The notes under the pieces are model-generated. The model searched no databases, was not told the origin of the DNA, and saw nothing but the letters and a program-made list of their open reading frames with translations. The translations under genes were made by a program, and so were the position numbers. 64,000 nucleotides of DNA from Escherichia coli (GTDB taxonomy: Bacteria > Pseudomonadota > Gammaproteobacteria > Enterobacterales > Enterobacteriaceae), in NCBI RefSeq assembly GCF_044324875.1, contig NZ_CP172185.1; one strand, 5' to 3'. Shown piece after piece: positions 23,605 through 55,689 of the stretch (the first letter of the stretch is position 1; each line of letters opens with the position of its first letter).

Positions 23605-23682
23605 GGCCTGATAAGACGCGTGATGCGTCGTATCAGGCATCGTTCACCATTGCCGGATGCGGCGTTAACGCCTTATCCGGCC
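23605..23682. repeat. REP/BIME element (two REP palindromic units) between ypfH and ypfN
   Basis: gtaggcctgataagacgcg...gcgtcgtatcaggcat and tgccggatgcggcgttaacgccttatccggcc, the classic E. coli REP (PU) signatures. Confidence 0.75.
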
Positions 23683-33874: not shown

Positions 33875-34918
33875 ATGCGCTATCGCATTTTCCTTCTCTT
33901 TTTTTTCGCTTTGTTGCCGACGTCTTTGGTGTGGGCGGCACCAGCGCAACGGGCGTTTTCCGACTGGCAGGTCACCTGTAATAATCAAAATTTTTGTGTG
34001 GCGCGCAATACGGGCGATCATAATGGACTGGTGATGACCCTGAGCCGCAGCGCTGGGGCGCATACCGATGCCGTTTTACGTATTGAGCGCGGCGGGTTGA
34101 AGTCGCCGGATGCGTCGGAAGGGGAGATAGCGCCACGGCTGCTGTTAGATGGTGAGCCGTTGGCATTAAGTGGTGACAAGTGGCGGATTTCACCATGGTT
34201 ATTAGTAACCGATGATACGGCAACCCTCACCGCGTTTTTGCAGATGATTCAGGAAGGGAAGGCAATCACCTTACGCGATGGCAATCAGACCATTTCTCTG
34301 AATGGCTTAAAAGCGGCGTTGTTGTTTATTGATGCTCAGCAAAAGCGCGTTGGCAGTGAAACCGCGTGGATAAAGAAAGGGGACGAACCGCCGCTCAGCG
34401 TACCGCCCGCGCCTGCGCTGAAAGAGGTCGCGGTGGTTAACCCAACGCCGACGCCACTCTCACTCGAAGAACGCAACGATTTGCTGGATTATGGAAACTG
34501 GCGGATGAATGGTCTGCGCTGCTCGCTTGATCCGTTACGTCGTGAGGTGAATGTCACTGCGCTGACCGATGATAAAGCACTGATGATGATTAGCTGTGAG
34601 GCAGGGGCCTATAACACCATTGATTTGGCATGGATTGTGTCGCGTAAAAAGCCGCTAGCCTCGCGCCCGGTACGGTTGCGTTTGCCGTTCAACAACGGTC
34701 AGGAGACGAATGAACTGGAACTGATGAACGCAACATTTGATGAGAAATCGCGTGAACTGGTGACCTTAGCGAAAGGGCGCGGATTAAGCGATTGTGGCAT
34801 TCAGGCGCGCTGGCGCTTTGACGGTCAGCGTTTTCGCCTGGTGCGTTACGCCGCAGAACCCACCTGCGATAACTGGCATGGGCCAGACGCCTGGCCCACG
34901 TTGTGGATCACCCGTTAA
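33875..34918 (+). CDS. ypfG: DUF1176 family protein YpfG (secreted, function unknown)
   Basis: 347 aa with N-terminal signal peptide MRYRIFLLFFFALLPTSLVWA. Confidence 0.9.
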   Translation: MRYRIFLLFFFALLPTSLVWAAPAQRAFSDWQVTCNNQNFCVARNTGDHNGLVMTLSRSAGAHTDAVLRIERGGLKSPDASEGEIAPRLLLDGEPLALSGDKWRISPWLLVTDDTATLTAFLQMIQEGKAITLRDGNQTISLNGLKAALLFIDAQQKRVGSETAWIKKGDEPPLSVPPAPALKEVAVVNPTPTPLSLEERNDLLDYGNWRMNGLRCSLDPLRREVNVTALTDDKALMMISCEAGAYNTIDLAWIVSRKKPLASRPVRLRLPFNNGQETNELELMNATFDEKSRELVTLAKGRGLSDCGIQARWRFDGQRFRLVRYAAEPTCDNWHGPDAWPTLWITR

Positions 34919-34947
34919 ACAAAATCGCAGATGAGGCCCTAAAAAGC

Positions 34948-34998
34948 GCACGGACCGTCCCCTCGCCCCTCTGGGAGAGGGTTAGGGTGAGGGGAACA
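34948..34998. repeat. GC-rich extragenic repeat, copy 1 (ypfG/tktB convergent gap)
   Basis: gcacggaccgtcccctcgcccctctgggagagggttagggtgaggggaaca; about 92% identical to the copy at 48326-48377. Confidence 0.7.
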
Positions 34999-35005
34999 TA
35001 CAGCA

Positions 35006-37009
35006 TCAGGCACCTTTCACTCCCAGCACCTTATGCGCTTTTGCCACAATATTCTCGGCGGTAAAGCCAAAGAACGGGAACAGCTTATCTGCCGGAGCAG
35101 ATTCCCCATAACCTGTCATCCCAACAATCGCCCCTTTCAAACCAACATACTTGTACCAGTAATCGGCGATGCCTGCTTCCACCGCCACGCGAGCCGCAAC
35201 GTTAGAAGGCAACACCGACTCCCGATATTCCTCATCCTGGGCGTCGAAAATATCGGTCGAAGGTAGGGAAACTACGCGTACATTACGACCTTCTCCCGCT
35301 AATTTCTCCGCCGCTTGCAGGGTGATTTCCATCTCTGAACCGGTGGCAATCAAAATAATATCTGGCTTGCCGCCGCTGTCTTTCAGCACATAACCACCAC
35401 GAGCAATCTCTTTAACCTGATCCGGCGTACGTTCCACCTGGGCCAGATTCTGCCTTGAGAGGATCAGTGCCGTCGGTCCGTTGTGGCGCTCAACCGCCAG
35501 CTTCCAGCCTACCGCTGCTTCCACCTGATCGCACGGTCGCCAGGTGCTGAAATTTGGCGTTAAGCGCAAACTGGCCAGTTGCTCAACAGCCTGGTGGGTC
35601 GGACCATCTTCCCCTAAGCCAATTGAGTCGTGGGTATAAACCATAATCTGCCGCGCTTTCATCAGTGCCGCCATCCGCGCGGCGTTACGGGCGTATTCAA
35701 CAAACATCAGGAACGTCGCGGTATACGGCACAAAGCCGCCGTGGTGCGCAATGCCGTTGGCGATAGCGGTCATGCCAAATTCACGCACCCCGTAGTGAAT
35801 GTAGTTGCCCGCCGGATCTTCCTTCAGCGAAACAGAACCTTTCCAGATGGTCAGGTTGCTGGGAGCCAGATCCGCCGAACCGCCGAGCAACTCCGGTAGC
35901 ATAGGCCCGTAAGCGTTAAGCGTATTTTGCGAAGCCTTACGGGTAGCGATTTTCGCCGGATTCGCCTGCAATTCATTGATATATTTCTGAGTCGTTTTCT
36001 CCCAGTCCTTCGGCAAACCGCCGCTCATCCGACGGGTAAACTCTTCTGCCAGTTGCGGATGGGCCTTTTTATAGGCGGCAAACTTCTCATTCCAGCTCTG
36101 CTGCGCTTTTTCGCCTTTTTCGCGGGCATCCCAGGCGTGATAAATCTCTTTAGGGATCTCAAATGGCGGATGGTGCCAGCCCAGTTTTTGCCGTGCCAGC
36201 GCCACTTCTTCTTCCCCCAGCGGTGCGCCGTGCGCCTCTTCCTTACCTGCTTTATTCGGCGAACCAAAGCCAATTACTGTGCGGCAGATAATCAGCGACG
36301 GCTTATCTTTCACGCTTTGCGCTTCAAGGATCGCTTTCTTCACCGCCTGCGGATCGTGACCGTCGATTTCATGGATCACATGCCAGTGATAGGCTTCAAA
36401 ACGTTTTGCTGTATCGTCGGTAAACCAGCCTTCGGTTTCACCGTCGATGGAAATACCGTTGTGATCGTAAAAACCAATCAGCTTGCCCAGTCCCAGCGTG
36501 CCCGCCAGCGAACAGACTTCGTGGGAAATACCTTCCATCAGGCAACCGTCGCCCATAAACACATAGGTGAAGTGATCGACAATTTCATGATCCGGCTGGT
36601 TAAACTGCGCCGCCAGTGTACGCTCTGCTATCGCCAGTCCGACGGCGTTCGCCAAACCTTGTCCAAGTGGACCGGTGGTGGTTTCAACACCTGGCGTATA
36701 GCCAATCTCCGGGTGACCTGGGGTTTTTGAATGCAACTGACGGAAGTTCTTCAGCTCTTCCAGCGGCAGGTCGTAACCGGTCAGATGTAGCAAACTGTAG
36801 AGCAGCATCGACGCGTGGCCGTTGGAAAGAATAAAGCGGTCGCGATCATACCAGGTTGGGTCGGTGGGGTTATGTTTAAGAAAATCGTTCCACAGCACTT
36901 CGGCAATATCAGCCATGCCCATCGGCGCGCCGGGATGACCAGAATTGGCTTTTTGTACCGCATCCATACTGAGTGCGCGAATCGCATTGGCAAGGTCTTT
37001 TCGGGACAT
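35006..37009 (-). CDS. tktB: Transketolase 2
   Basis: 667 aa from ATG 37009 ([27 protein letters not shown]...) with GGAG SD; track ORF is extended 21 codons. Confidence 0.96.
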
Positions 37010-37028
37010 ATAACACTCCGTGGCTGGT

Positions 37029-37979
37029 TTATAGTTTGGCGGCAAGAAGATCTTCCAGTTTGCGTTGATCAACGGCGAACAGACGAATGCCTTCAGACAG
37101 TTTTTCTACCGCCATCGCATCCTGATTGTGCTCCCAACGGAACTCCGCTTCGCTCATGGGAGCGGGGCGTGGGAACGTCTGAGAAGGTGGGATTAATTTA
37201 CGTACCACTGGCGAAACTTTTTCCTGCAGCTCCTTCAGCAAATTCGGTGCGATAGTCAGTCGATCGCAGCCGGTTAAGGCGAGGATTTGTTCGGTGCGAC
37301 GGAAGCTCGCGCCCATCACAATGGTTTCATAGCGGTGTTGCTTATAGTAGTCGTAGATATTGCGCACCGATTTAACGCCCGGATCTTCTTCCACCACATA
37401 CGGGTCCATCGGCTTGCGTGCCTGATACCAGTCATAAATACGCCCGACAAACGGCGAAATCAGAAAAACGCCTGCTTCTGCACAGGCCCGCGCCTGGGCA
37501 AAAGAAAACAGCAGCGTCAGGTTGCAGTTAATACCTTCTTTTTCCAGCTCTTCTGCCGCGCGAATTCCTTCCCAGGTCGAAGCCAGTTTGATCAGAATGC
37601 GTGATTTCTCAACGCCTTGTTGCTGATACAAGTCCACCAGATGGCGCGCCTTCTCAATACTCTTTTCTTTATCAAAAGAGAGGCGTGCATCAACTTCTGT
37701 TGACACGCGACCGGGTACGATTTTGAGAATTTCAGCACCGAAATTGACCGCCAGTTTGTCACACGCTGCGACCACCTGTTGTTCCTGGGTCTTGCCATTT
37801 TTTTTACCCCAGGCGATAGCATCGTCTATTAAATGCTCATATTGTGATAATCCGGCAGCCTTGAGTAACAGCGAAGGATTGGTGGTGGCATCCTGGGGAT
37901 GATAATGGCGAATGGACTCAATATCGCCGCTGTCTGCCACGACAGTGGTGAACTGTTTGATGCCGTCTAACTCGTTCAT
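37029..37979 (-). CDS. talA: Transaldolase A
   Basis: 316 aa; immediately upstream of tktB on the same strand (talA-tktB operon). Confidence 0.96.
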
Positions 37980-46307: not shown

Positions 46308-47144
46308 ATGGCGCACGACGAACAATGGCTCATCCCGCGTCTGCAAACGGCGGCAACGCTGTGTAACCAGACGCCTGCCGCAACGGAATCTCCGCTGTGG
46401 CTGGGGGTGGATCTGGGCACCTGCGATGTGGTGTCGATGGTTGTCGACCGCGACGGTCAGCCGGTGGCGGTATGCCTCGACTGGGCTGATGTGGTCCGCG
46501 ACGGCATCGTCTGGGATTTCTTCGGTGCGGTCACCATTGTTCGTCGCCATCTTGACACCCTCGAGCAGCAATTCGGTCGCCGTTTTAGCCATGCGGCGAC
46601 CTCTTTTCCTCCAGGTACGGACCCGCGTATTTCCATCAACGTGCTGGAGTCTGCCGGGCTGGAAGTGAGCCATGTGCTGGATGAGCCAACCGCAGTCGCG
46701 GATCTGCTGCAACTGGACAACGCCGGTGTAGTGGATATCGGCGGCGGCACCACCGGCATTGCCATCGTGAAAAAGGGCAAGGTGACTTACTCGGCAGATG
46801 AAGCCACCGGCGGACATCACATCTCTCTGACTCTCGCCGGAAATCGTCGTATTTCGCTGGAGGAGGCAGAGCAGTACAAGCGCGGTCACGGTGAAGAGAT
46901 TTGGCCCGCGGTGAAACCGGTGTACGAAAAAATGGCGGACATTGTCGCCCGGCATATTGAAGGGCAGGGCATTACTGATTTATGGCTGGCGGGCGGCTCT
47001 TGTATGCAACCGGGCGTGGCGGAACTGTTTCGCAAACAATTCCCGGCGTTACAGGTGCATTTACCGCAGCACAGTTTGTTTATGACCCCGCTGGCGATCG
47101 CCAGTAGCGGGCGAGAGAAAGCGGAGGGGATCTATGCAAAATGA
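46308..47144 (+). CDS. eutJ: Ethanolamine utilisation chaperone-like protein EutJ (actin/Hsp70 fold)
   Basis: 278 aa; VDIGGGTTGIA phosphate-binding loop. Confidence 0.92.
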   Translation: MAHDEQWLIPRLQTAATLCNQTPAATESPLWLGVDLGTCDVVSMVVDRDGQPVAVCLDWADVVRDGIVWDFFGAVTIVRRHLDTLEQQFGRRFSHAATSFPPGTDPRISINVLESAGLEVSHVLDEPTAVADLLQLDNAGVVDIGGGTTGIAIVKKGKVTYSADEATGGHHISLTLAGNRRISLEEAEQYKRGHGEEIWPAVKPVYEKMADIVARHIEGQGITDLWLAGGSCMQPGVAELFRKQFPALQVHLPQHSLFMTPLAIASSGREKAEGIYAK

Positions 47145-48321
47145 ATTGCAGACCGCGCTCTTTCAGGCGTTCGATACCCTGAATCTGCAACGGGTAAAAA
47201 CATTTAGCGTTCCACCGGTGACGCTTTGCGGTCCGGGCGCGGTGAGCAGTTGTGGGCAGCAAGCGCAAACGCGTGGGCTGAAACATCTGTTCGTGATGGC
47301 AGACAGCTTTTTGCATCAGGCAGGGATGACCGCCGGGCTGACGCGTAGCCTGGCCGTTAAAGGTATCGCCATGACGCTCTGGCCATGTCCGGTGGGCGAA
47401 CCATGCATCACCGACGTGTGTGCAGCCGTGGCGCAGTTGCGTGAATCAGGCTGTGACGGGGTGATTGCGTTTGGCGGCGGCTCGGTGCTGGATGCAGCAA
47501 AAGCCGTGGCGTTGCTGGTGACGAACCCGGATAGCACGCTGGCAGAGATGTCAGAAACCAGCGTTCTGCAACCGCGCCTGCCGTTGATTGCCATTCCAAC
47601 GACCGCCGGAACCGGCTCTGAAACCACCAACGTAACGGTGATTATCGACGCGGTGAGCGGGCGCAAGCAGGTGTTAGCCCATGCCTCGCTGATGCCGGAT
47701 GTGGCGATTCTCGACGCTGCGCTGACCGAAGGCGTGCCGTCGCATGTCACGGCGATGACCGGTATCGACGCGTTAACCCATGCTATTGAAGCGTACAGCG
47801 CGCTGAACGCCACACCGTTTACCGACAGCCTGGCGATTGGTGCCATTGCGATGATTGGCAAATCGCTGCCGAAAGCGGTGGGCTACGGTCACGACCTTGC
47901 CGCCCGCGAGAGCATGTTGCTGGCTTCATGTATGGCGGGAATGGCGTTTTCCAGTGCGGGGCTTGGGTTGTGCCACGCGATGGCGCATCAGCCAGGGGCG
48001 GCGCTGCATATTCCGCACGGTCTGGCGAACGCCATGCTACTGCCAACGGTGATGGAGTTTAACCGGATGGTCTGTCGTGAACGCTTTAGTCAGATTGGTC
48101 GGGCGCTGCGAACTAAAAAATCCGACGATCGTGACGCTATTAACGCGGTAAGTGAGCTGATTGCGGAAGTCGGGATTGGTAAACGACTGGGCGATATTGG
48201 TGCGACATCTGCGCATTACGGCGCATGGGCGCAGGCCGCGCTGGAAGATATTTGTCTGCGCAGCAACCCGCGTACCGCCAGCCTGGAGCAGATTATTGGT
48301 CTGTATGCTGCGGCGCAATAA
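47134..48321 (+). CDS. eutG: Iron-containing alcohol dehydrogenase EutG
   Basis: 395 aa; GGGSVLD motif; overlaps eutJ 3' end by 11 nt. Confidence 0.93.
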   Translation: MQNELQTALFQAFDTLNLQRVKTFSVPPVTLCGPGAVSSCGQQAQTRGLKHLFVMADSFLHQAGMTAGLTRSLAVKGIAMTLWPCPVGEPCITDVCAAVAQLRESGCDGVIAFGGGSVLDAAKAVALLVTNPDSTLAEMSETSVLQPRLPLIAIPTTAGTGSETTNVTVIIDAVSGRKQVLAHASLMPDVAILDAALTEGVPSHVTAMTGIDALTHAIEAYSALNATPFTDSLAIGAIAMIGKSLPKAVGYGHDLAARESMLLASCMAGMAFSSAGLGLCHAMAHQPGAALHIPHGLANAMLLPTVMEFNRMVCRERFSQIGRALRTKKSDDRDAINAVSELIAEVGIGKRLGDIGATSAHYGAWAQAALEDICLRSNPRTASLEQIIGLYAAAQ

Positions 48322-48325
48322 AAGT

Positions 48326-48440
48326 GTACGGACAGTCCCCTCGCCCCTTTGGGGAGAGGGTTAGGGTGAGGGGAACAGAGTCGCGCCGGTGCAAATAATT
48401 ACCCTCACCCCGACCCCTCGGCTTCCAGAGTGAGGGAAAA
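48326..48440. repeat. GC-rich extragenic repeat, copy 2 plus partial inverted copy (eutG-eutH gap)
   Basis: gtacggacagtcccctcgcccctttggggagagggttagggtgaggggaaca, then ccctcaccc 28 nt downstream as an inverted partner of gggtgaggg. Confidence 0.7.
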
Positions 48441-48490: not shown

Positions 48491-49717
48491 ATGGGAATTA
48501 ACGAAATCATCATGTACATCATGATGTTCTTTATGCTGATAGCTGCCGTAGACAGGATCCTGTCGCAGTTCGGCGGTTCTGCTCGTTTCCTCGGTAAGTT
48601 CGGTAAAAGTATCGAAGGATCAGGCGGTCAGTTCGAAGAAGGCTTTATGGCAATGGGCGCACTGGGCCTGGCGATGGTCGGTATGACCGCGCTGGCACCG
48701 GTACTGGCTCACGTACTCGGGCCGGTGATTATCCCGGTTTACGAAATGCTCGGCGCAAACCCATCGATGTTCGCCGGAACACTGCTGGCGTGCGATATGG
48801 GCGGCTTCTTCCTCGCCAAAGAGCTGGCGGGCGGCGACGTAGCAGCGTGGCTATACTCTGGGTTAATTCTCGGGTCGATGATGGGGCCAACGATTGTGTT
48901 TTCCATTCCGGTGGCGCTCGGCATTATCGAACCTTCTGACCGTCGTTATCTGGCGCTCGGCGTGCTGGCGGGCATTGTGACCATTCCGATTGGCTGTATT
49001 GCCGGTGGTCTGGTGGCTATGTATTCCGGTGTGCAGATCAACGGTCAGCCAGTGGAATTCACCTTTGCCCTGATCCTGATGAACATGATCCCGGTACTTA
49101 TCGTCGCGGTACTGGTGGCGCTGGGGCTGAAATTCATCCCGGAAAAAATGATCAACGGCTTCCAGATCTTCGCCAAATTCCTCGTTGCATTGATCACCCT
49201 CGGTCTTGCCGCTGCGGTAGTGAAATTCCTGCTCGGTTGGGAACTGATCCCCGGTCTGGATCCGATCTTCATGGCTCCAGGCGATAAACCCGGTGAAGTG
49301 ATGCGCGCCATTGAAGTTATCGGTTCTATCTCCTGCGTGCTGTTAGGGGCGTACCCGATGGTACTGCTGCTGACCCGCTGGTTTGAAAAACCGCTGATGA
49401 GCGTCGGTAAGGTGCTGAATATGAACAACATCGCGGCAGCTGGCATGGTGGCAACGCTTGCCAACAACATCCCAATGTTTGGCATGATGAAGCAGATGGA
49501 TACCCGCGGCAAAGTCATCAACTGCGCCTTCGCCGTTTCCGCTGCTTTCGCCCTGGGTGACCACTTAGGCTTCGCCGCTGCCAACATGAACGCCATGATT
49601 TTCCCGATGATTGTCGGCAAGTTGATCGGCGGCGTAACGGCGATTGGCGTGGCGATGATGCTGGTGCCAAAAGAAGACGCGACCGCGGCCAAAACCGAAG
49701 CGGAGGCACAATCGTGA
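48491..49717 (+). CDS. eutH: Ethanolamine permease EutH
   Basis: 408 aa polytopic membrane protein. Confidence 0.93.
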   Translation: MGINEIIMYIMMFFMLIAAVDRILSQFGGSARFLGKFGKSIEGSGGQFEEGFMAMGALGLAMVGMTALAPVLAHVLGPVIIPVYEMLGANPSMFAGTLLACDMGGFFLAKELAGGDVAAWLYSGLILGSMMGPTIVFSIPVALGIIEPSDRRYLALGVLAGIVTIPIGCIAGGLVAMYSGVQINGQPVEFTFALILMNMIPVLIVAVLVALGLKFIPEKMINGFQIFAKFLVALITLGLAAAVVKFLLGWELIPGLDPIFMAPGDKPGEVMRAIEVIGSISCVLLGAYPMVLLLTRWFEKPLMSVGKVLNMNNIAAAGMVATLANNIPMFGMMKQMDTRGKVINCAFAVSAAFALGDHLGFAAANMNAMIFPMIVGKLIGGVTAIGVAMMLVPKEDATAAKTEAEAQS

Positions 49718-54631: not shown

Positions 54632-55684
54632 ATGAAAAAGACCCGTACAGCCAATTTGCACCATCTTTATCATGAACCCTTACCCGAAAACCTGAAGCTC
54701 ACGCCGAAGGTCGAAGTGGATAATGTTCATCAACGACAGACAACGGACGTCTATGAACATGCTTTGACAATTACCGCCTGGCAGCAGATTTACGATCAGC
54801 TGCATCCGGGCAAGTTTCATGGTGAATTTACGGAAATTCTACTCGATGATATTCAGGTTTTTCGTGAATACACTGGTCTGGCGCTGCGTCAGTCGTGCCT
54901 GGTCTGGCCGAACTCGTTCTGGTTTGGCATTCCGGCGACGCGCGGTGAGCTGGGATTTATCGGTTCGCAATGTCTGGGAAGCGCAGAAATTGCGACGCGC
55001 CCGGGTGGAACTGAGTTTGAATTAAGTACGCCGGACGATTACACGATCCTTGGCGTAGTGCTTTCTGAAGATGTCATCACTCGTCAGGCTAACTTTTTGC
55101 ATAATCCGGATCGGGTATTACATATGCTGCGTAGCCAGTCGGCGCTGGAAGTGAAAGAGCAGCATAAAGCCGCGCTGTGGGGCTTTGTCCAACAGGCGCT
55201 GGCGACGTTTTGCGAGAACCCGGAAAATCTCCATCAGCCTGCAGTGCGAAAAGTGCTGGGGGATAATTTGCTCATGGCGATGGGGGCGATGCTGGAAGAA
55301 GCGCAGCCGATGATGACGGCGGAAAGCATCAGTCATCAGAGTTACCGTCGATTGCTTTCCCGCGCCCGTGAATATGTGCTGGAAAACATGTCCGAACCGG
55401 TGACGGTGCTGGACTTGTGTAATCAACTGCATGTCAGCCGCCGCACGCTACAAAACGCGTTTCACGCCATTTTGGGCATTGGTCCGAACGCGTGGCTGAA
55501 ACGTATTCGCCTGAACGCCGTGCGCCGCGAACTCATAAGTCCGTGGTCACAAAGCACAACGGTAAAAGACGCCGCCATGCAGTGGGGATTCTGGCATCTT
55601 GGGCAATTTGCCACGGATTATCAGCAACTGTTTGCCGAGAAGCCGTCACTGACGCTGCATCAGCGGATGCGAGAGTGGGGGTGA
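54632..55684 (+). CDS. eutR: AraC-family transcriptional activator of the eut operon
   Basis: 350 aa; C-terminal AraC-type HTH. Confidence 0.93.
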
Positions 55685-55689
55685 GGGAG

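Follow-up and report, generated by a model that had tools for sequence, protein, structure and literature searches.

The GC-rich repeat in the convergent gap between ypfG and tktB is most probably (we put the probability at about 85%) one ordinary copy of BoxC, also known as PIT or TMECO, a passive, structure-forming repeat dispersed through intergenic space. It lies in a 64,000-nt stretch of Escherichia coli DNA (the window) whose initial annotation saw the repeat correctly, together with a second copy in the eut operon, but did not recognize it as a member of a family that has been known for 30 years. The gap spans 87 nt (34919-35005), and the full unit that it holds, hereafter copy A, is AAAAGCGCACGGACCGTCCCCTCGCCCCTCTGGGAGAGGGTTAGGGTGAGGGGAACA (34942-34998), of which the string first quoted covers 34948-34998. 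Copy B starts at the eutG stop codon (48319-48321), with the eutH ATG (48491) 113 nt downstream. The true start of tktB is probably near 37009, since the K-12 gene is 2004 nt long.

Genes and repeat elements at the two BoxC sites of the window.
Feature	Position	Strand	Basis
ypfG (DUF1176 protein), upstream neighbor of copy A	33875..34918	+	ORF; names from homologous annotated records
BoxC copy A, 57-nt unit of the family: 5' flank, core with the triplex motif, 3' GAACA	34942..34998	+	aligned to copy B and nine K-12 BoxC loci
TMECO core of copy A, subtype A mm	34960..34994	+	strict regex match
tktB (transketolase 2), ORF as listed; stop codon 35006-35008	35006..37072	-	ORF; homologous annotated records
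eutG, stop codon overlaps first bases of copy B	47134..48321	+	ORF; homologous annotated records
BoxC copy B, 58-nt unit, eutG-eutH intercistronic gap	48320..48377	+	aligned to copy A
TMECO core of copy B	48338..48373	+	strict regex; identity to Table 1 entries of PMC4666352
Degenerate inverted partner of copy B, type-B-like, TCG second loop	48401..48436	-	sequence; fails strict consensus
eutH, downstream of the BoxC pair, same operon	48491..49717	+	ORF; homologous annotated records

Pairwise alignment bore out that the same repeat occurs twice and returned, over the roughly 50 nt initially compared, exactly the three substitutions and the 1-nt indel that had been counted. Across the full units (57 versus 58 nt), the copies differ by four substitutions and one indel (53/58 identity). 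They lie in direct orientation on the same strand, 13,378-13,379 nt apart, where 13 kb had been estimated, and the longest perfect block common to both measures 26 nt (34973-34998). The likeness extends beyond G/C runs, taking in a 5' flank of mixed composition, AAAAG[C/T]G[C/T]ACGGAC[C/A]GTC, and a 3' GAACA. When up to three mismatches were allowed, the 22-nt core had two sites in the window, namely copies A and B, and none in 100 dinucleotide-preserving shuffles, so that chance does not explain the match.

Both copies belong to a published family. The TMECO consensus reads 5'-CCCTCNCCC-N3-6-GGGNGAGGG-N3-GGGNGAGGG, then [G/T/C] (Holder et al., 2015; PMC4666352), and the same paper equates this triplex motif with the element first named BoxC (Bergler et al., 1992) and later PIT, for potential intrastrand triplex (Hoyne et al., 2000; Hoyne and Maher, 2002); the family is also covered by Bachellier et al. 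(1999). Within the 64 kb, a strict regular expression for the consensus matched the two cores listed in the table, both on the + strand, and no further site. An isolated GGGGTGAGGG at 55678-55687 lacks the other two motif blocks and is not a BoxC copy. Both cores are of subtype A mm, with TTA as the second loop and one mismatched triplet in which G stands opposite A (C-stem/G-stem 1): position 6 of the C-stem is G, position 4 of G-stem 1 is A, and position 4 of G-stem 2 is T. The core of copy B is identical, letter for letter, to K-12 TMECO nos. 7, 11, and 15 (Table 1 of PMC4666352, type A mm), and one of the two A mm oligonucleotides in the text of that paper is its exact sequence.

The relationship extends to the flanks. 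For alignment, we extracted nine K-12 BoxC loci by the coordinates of Table 1 of PMC4666352; these and the window copies have in common a 5' GCRCAC..CGGTC and a 3' GAAC or GAAA, in agreement with the description of BoxC, as quoted in a 2008 survey, as an element of 56 bp with 32 copies. Copy A is 91% identical to the K-12 copy downstream of adk, 90% to those upstream of fepB and between pstA and pstB, and 91% to copy B, and the window copies are 76-91% identical to other type-A copies. Copy A is therefore as close to distant K-12 copies as to copy B, which makes the two ordinary family members rather than products of a local duplication. In sum, the likeness to BoxC/PIT/TMECO comprises the exact consensus match with its TTA loop and G.A mismatch, the conserved flanks of the ∼56-nt unit, the intergenic position, and the multi-copy chromosomal distribution. 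The window copies depart from the family in occupying strain-variable sites where the reference K-12 MG1655 has no TMECO, and in the first loop of copy A, which has 4 nt (CTCT) where most family copies have 5 nt.

Each unit is built from a C-rich 9-mer followed by two G-rich 9-mers. In copy A, the C-stem (34960-34968) is separated by the CTCT loop (34969-34972) from G-stem 1 (34973-34981), and this by the TTA loop (34982-34984) from G-stem 2 (34985-34993), after which comes a G. The segment 34959-34994 (36 nt, one base beyond the regex core) has a predicted RNA hairpin of -23.2 kcal/mol on the + strand and -18.1 kcal/mol on the - strand, and in the + strand fold the C-stem pairs with G-stem 2 via a G-U wobble. 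For the whole copy A gap, the fold z-scores were -0.9 and -0.5, no better than composition predicts, so that thermodynamics alone is no mark of a selected structure.

Copy B is followed, after 27 nt, by its degenerate inverted partner. The partner is ∼72% identical, as judged by eye, to K-12 TMECO no. 12 (type B), and a core scan found only CCCTCACCC at 48402 within it. Copy B and partner together (48313-48440) fold at -52.4 kcal/mol (z = -2.56) into an imperfect hairpin of ∼115 nt, that is, a long imperfect palindrome. Inverted pairs of a type A and a type B element occur at five K-12 sites (PMC4666352), and the eut arrangement, with a partner too decayed for the consensus, fits both the 'palindromic' type A + type B sites and the 'mutated palindromic TMECO' sites of that paper. 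On the opposite strand within ∼100 nt, copy A has no consensus TMECO, and the only candidate at copy B is the partner that fails the strict regex.

Other classes of element did not account for the gap. No terminator-like or promoter-like site was found on either strand in 34700-35200. An intrinsic (Rho-independent) terminator was rejected, as no U tract directly follows the stem and, on the tktB strand, a T5 run stands 14 nt beyond it. Rfam searches at the gathering threshold over the whole window, and at E ≤ 10 on 34800-35100, gave no relevant family for the gap; a sub-threshold match to Antizyme_FSE (22.6 bits against a cut-off of 40) was implausible. We also rejected identity with REP/BIME elements (of the GCCGGATGCGGCG...CGCCTTATCCGGCCTAC type), as the REP-derived naRNA4 model matches neither BoxC gap of the window and has no match in 34800-35100 at E ≤ 10. 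The sole Rfam match at the gathering threshold in the window is naRNA4 (RF02564) at 23605-23682 on the - strand (85.7 bits), a two-REP BIME (GCCTGATAAGACGC...GCCGGATGCGGCG...). The window therefore has REPs elsewhere, though not in its two BoxC gaps.

We compared the content of these gaps across E. coli. K-12 MG1655 is without a TMECO at either ypfG-tktB or eutG-eutH, and Table 1 of PMC4666352 has none between 1.35 and 3.05 Mb. At ypfG-tktB, the conserved flanks are the same in K-12 and most other strains and enclose a REP with partial duplications; in the BoxC allele, the REP unit is replaced and a REP-like remnant, CAGCATCCGGCGATCAC, is kept on the tktB side. This allele is present in 674 of 5426 genomes (counted at ≥80% coverage of a 166-nt probe), and the gap has at least four allele types across E. 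coli. In the BoxC-bearing strains SCU-313 and CREC-544, a further 14 nt, CATCCGGCGATCAC, follow BoxC before the tktB stop codon is reached; these are absent from the window (34999-35005) and from ST2747. The CATC direct repeats on either side of the missing 14 nt suggest that slippage removed this part of the REP remnant. At eutG-eutH, the BoxC pair occurs in 304 of 5426 genomes, and most strains carry BIME arrays there. Records without BoxC differ by exact 100-nt steps (spans of 218, 318, 418, and 618 nt), as would fit a BIME array that grows and shrinks within the eut operon, and the gap ranges from 201 to 618 nt in length across E. coli. naRNA4 matches the MC4100 eutG-eutH gap (71.8 bits), the K-12 tktB-ypfG gap (37.5 bits), and the AF22 allele as well, which supports the REP nature of the alternative alleles.

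Two further loci showed the same association. Between pstA and pstB, where the BoxC site lies 8 nt from a REP, 2099 genomes carry BoxC (K-12 is filled and DETEC-E601 empty) and more than 3000 do not; sampled alleles without it (span 208 versus 300 nt) lack 92 nt and have nothing instead, and BoxC is therefore dispensable there. Between zntA and tusA in strain AF22, a three-REP BIME stands directly beside BoxC. A REP/BIME was thus replaced by BoxC or found beside it at all four loci that we examined, and at two K-12 BoxC loci REP/BIME sequences lie within 8-20 nt. Insertions of boxC at BIME loci have reportedly been seen in natural isolates.

The ypfG-tktB region (34300-35700) is 99.6% identical to three ST2747 genomes and 90-95% identical to 4455 of 5427 E. 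coli records; for a eutG-eutH probe, the closest strain was another one, CFSAN061771 (99.3%). By sequence comparison, we take the window to derive from a divergent or mosaic E. coli lineage.

The family is abundant on E. coli chromosomes. Of 5426 complete E. coli genomes, 5425 contain the 58-nt unit, with 15 places per genome as the median (range 1-29), and its places were chromosomal in 79,865 cases and on plasmids in 47; many E. coli genomes have, between eutG and eutH, a copy that matches the unit of copy B at 100%. The best-matching 'plasmid' records in PLSDB measure 0.3-4.9 Mb and several are evidently chromosomes, among them 'E. coli plasmid' records of 4.8-4.9 Mb with 13-24 BoxC copies each, which inflate plasmid counts. 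Among 50,697 phage records, only three match the BoxC unit. One of them, MG065686.1 ('Campylobacter phage A18a', UNVERIFIED, 174 kb), seems, by contamination or misassembly, to include chromosomal DNA of E. coli: at 140693-141539, the stretch that we read, bases 300-560 of 847 nt, is identical to the E. coli pstA-pstB gap, REP and BoxC included. MG065691.1 is another of the phage-record matches.

A pattern scan of one genome per species found the TMECO core far from E. coli. Wide spread had been reported earlier, with 3610 copies in 262 proteobacterial genomes and a copy number of 143 in Enterobacter asburiae (PMC4666352). Among the matches listed in our scan were Mitsuaria chitosanitabida (>100 copies), a Methylomirabilota MAG, and Ca. 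Contendobacter; these distant taxa share a core of 27 specified bases, with flanks that differ from those of E. coli. Family cores are nearly invariant; the cross-phylum set came from a regex in which only three stem positions are free to vary. Also among the matches listed, Mitsuaria copies often form inverted pairs 80-230 nt apart, and the G variant at C-stem position 6, dominant in E. coli, is present in 64 of 153 Mitsuaria copies, so that the T/G alternative at this position recurs in distant taxa. The cross-phylum core and the recurring T/G variant are hard to square with a purely neutral repeat, and hint at a conserved constraint or a host factor.

What would such an element do in its gap? 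The C-rich 9-mer and the two G-rich 9-mers allow either strand, once it is single-stranded or transcribed, to form a stable GC hairpin, and the G-rich strand could adopt the purine-motif intrastrand triplex published for the family in vitro. Both copies lie close behind stop codons in transcribed space that is free of promoters, the niche that REP/BIME fills at these two sites in most other E. coli, and on our reading each would be a passive or selfish structural repeat tolerated in place. The main consequence would then be that the intergenic spacer varies locally, by indels and by replacement, and at most the repeat may add a REP-like 3' or intercistronic RNA hairpin. The co-occurrence with REP/BIME at four of four loci could nevertheless mean targeting or functional equivalence rather than mere tolerance. 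In the literature that we searched, no functional work on BoxC/TMECO was found beyond the 2015 paper. Several other readings have been or can be proposed, namely a cis-acting RNA stabilizer, triplex-driven instability, and REP-targeted mobility; each draws some support and none is established.

The two structural alternatives concern the DNA and the RNA. Holder et al. put forward an instability model, in which the DNA itself forms an intrastrand triplex or hairpin that stalls replication or repair and makes the spacer a mutational hotspot. Type A mm was characterized by CD and NMR and forms a triplex in vitro with a Tm of ∼74°C (PMC4666352), and from the identity of its core to this type copy B would be expected to do the same. 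Local variability was found to be raised around TMECO sites (PMC4666352), and both window loci are highly polymorphic in allele type and length, with the additional 14-nt deletion beside the element in the window allele. In vivo DMS footprinting and duplex CD/NMR, on the other hand, did not support the triplex in duplex or cellular DNA (PMC4666352), and much of the length polymorphism resides in REP/BIME alleles without BoxC, as the 100-nt BIME steps. The variability therefore belongs to the site or to the REPs and not specifically to BoxC, and we consider triplex-driven instability unlikely. Alternatively, BoxC could be a functional cis-acting RNA element interchangeable with REP, which protects the upstream mRNA from 3'-5' exonucleases or modulates translation termination or the coupling of eutG and eutH. 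The transcribed-strand hairpins begin 11-16 nt after a stop codon at both copies (11 nt separate the tktB stop from the stem end at 34994, and 16 nt the eutG stop from the stem start at 48337), most strains have REP/BIME at these positions, and the eut pair has the low folding energy and z-score given above. REPs reportedly stabilize upstream mRNA and, when near stop codons, affect translation. Yet Hoyne and Maher (2002), as summarized in PMC4666352, found neither promoter nor terminator activity, nor any effect on RNA polymerase, published surveys saw no bias in orientation or gene class, the K-12 copy at fepB lies upstream of that gene and not at a 3' end, and the more than 3000 genomes without the element at pstA-pstB speak for its dispensability at that site. 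A role of this kind seems to us rather unlikely.

The remaining alternatives concern movement and exchange. BoxC may be, or may have been, a non-autonomous mobile element of REPIN or MITE type that inserts in or beside REP/BIME, which would explain the replacement of REPs at both window copies. The association at all four loci points this way, as does the filled/empty polymorphism at pstA-pstB, where the insertion is flanked by the 8-mer AACCGTGT (in 13 of 300 shuffles, a shared flanking word was as long or longer); the filled allele has three copies of this 8-mer against one in the empty allele, a picture that resembles a target-site duplication with an additional 18-nt repeat. Inverted pairs of type A and type B, moreover, are similar to the REPIN doublets mobilized by RAYT: the copy B locus likewise has inverted related units with a short spacer that form one long hairpin. 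Its arms are nevertheless of different subtypes (A and B) where those of REPINs are near-identical copies, and REPINs are lineage-specific whereas conservation of the BoxC core spans phyla. RAYT is the known cognate transposase of REPs, and none is known for BoxC. A tblastn search with an unverified YafM/RAYT query sequence, against 1.07 Mb around 120 TMECO-bearing loci (genomes partly sampled), gave only matches at E ≥ 3 and thus no Y1-transposase-like ORF, a weak negative. Flanking direct repeats in 13 BoxC copies gave no general or consistent target-site duplication: they lay at differing offsets at pstA-pstB (8 nt) and yjdP-phnP (9 nt), and the other 11 copies, both window copies included, did no better than shuffled flanks. 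BoxC is also nearly absent from plasmids and phages, TMECO loci are stable across strains (PMC4666352), and REPs are so common in 3'-end gaps that co-occurrence at four of four loci may reflect a shared permissive niche. We therefore hold mobility of this type to be doubtful. A broader proposal, that BoxC and REP/BIME are alternative cassettes of the same intergenic sites, with BoxC either a REP-targeting non-autonomous mobile element or a sequence exchanged by the REP machinery, is a speculation that we rate as distinctly improbable; the cross-phylum core would in that case point to a conserved protein partner. The last alternative comes from the initial annotation, which suggested recombination or deletion between the two copies. 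As direct repeats, they could serve as a RecA-dependent or slippage substrate and so delete or duplicate the 13.4-kb tktB-talA-maeB-eutSPQTDMNEJG interval; inversion is not expected from direct repeats. The orientation, the 53/58 identity, and the 26-nt block allow this in principle, and to our knowledge none of the intervening genes, from tktB to eutG, is essential. Holder et al. (PMC4666352) also consider recombination between distant TMECO sites possible in principle, on theoretical grounds only, and report that across 56 strains most TMECOs keep to their own locus. We screened for the event with a predicted deletion junction (600 nt of the ypfG side, the recombinant BoxC, and 600 nt of the eutH side) and with the reciprocal tandem-duplication junction. 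None of the 5426 complete E. coli genomes contained, as one contiguous place, either the deletion with endpoints at the repeats or the duplication, and the intact ypfG-tktB junction is present in 5418 of them. The population at risk is small, as at most 304 genomes can carry both copies, and the closest relative, ST2747 (99.6%), has both copies with the interval intact. The 26-bp perfect block stands at the lower limit for RecA-mediated exchange, for which the minimum efficient processing segment is said to be ∼23-27 bp, and slippage falls steeply with distance. With ∼15 equally similar copies per genome as equally good partners, the 13-kb pair is not special. The suggestion thus holds in principle and gained no empirical support; we regard it as very improbable, and copy A is no meaningful recombination substrate with the copy 13 kb away.

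Throughout, the reading of copy A as a passive BoxC repeat is the one that we prefer. REP/BIME elements (including naRNA4, RF02564) resemble BoxC in using the same two gaps, in being GC-rich imperfect palindromes after stop codons, and in their copy-number polymorphism, and they differ from it in their unrelated sequence. The published set comprises 63 TMECO loci (Holder et al., 2015; PMC4666352).

Altogether, the finding is of little consequence for the window itself, which holds one more instance of a known repeat family to which direct tests have assigned no function. Its value for annotation is that two gaps with REP/BIME in K-12 hold BoxC in this lineage; the spacer content is strain-variable, and therefore no lineage-specific regulatory invention is to be read from it. 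The general question of what spreads and conserves BoxC, and why it shares its sites with REPs, is slightly sharpened, and the filled/empty polymorphism at pstA-pstB, together with the REP-to-BoxC replacements at two further loci, is usable to reconstruct insertion events.
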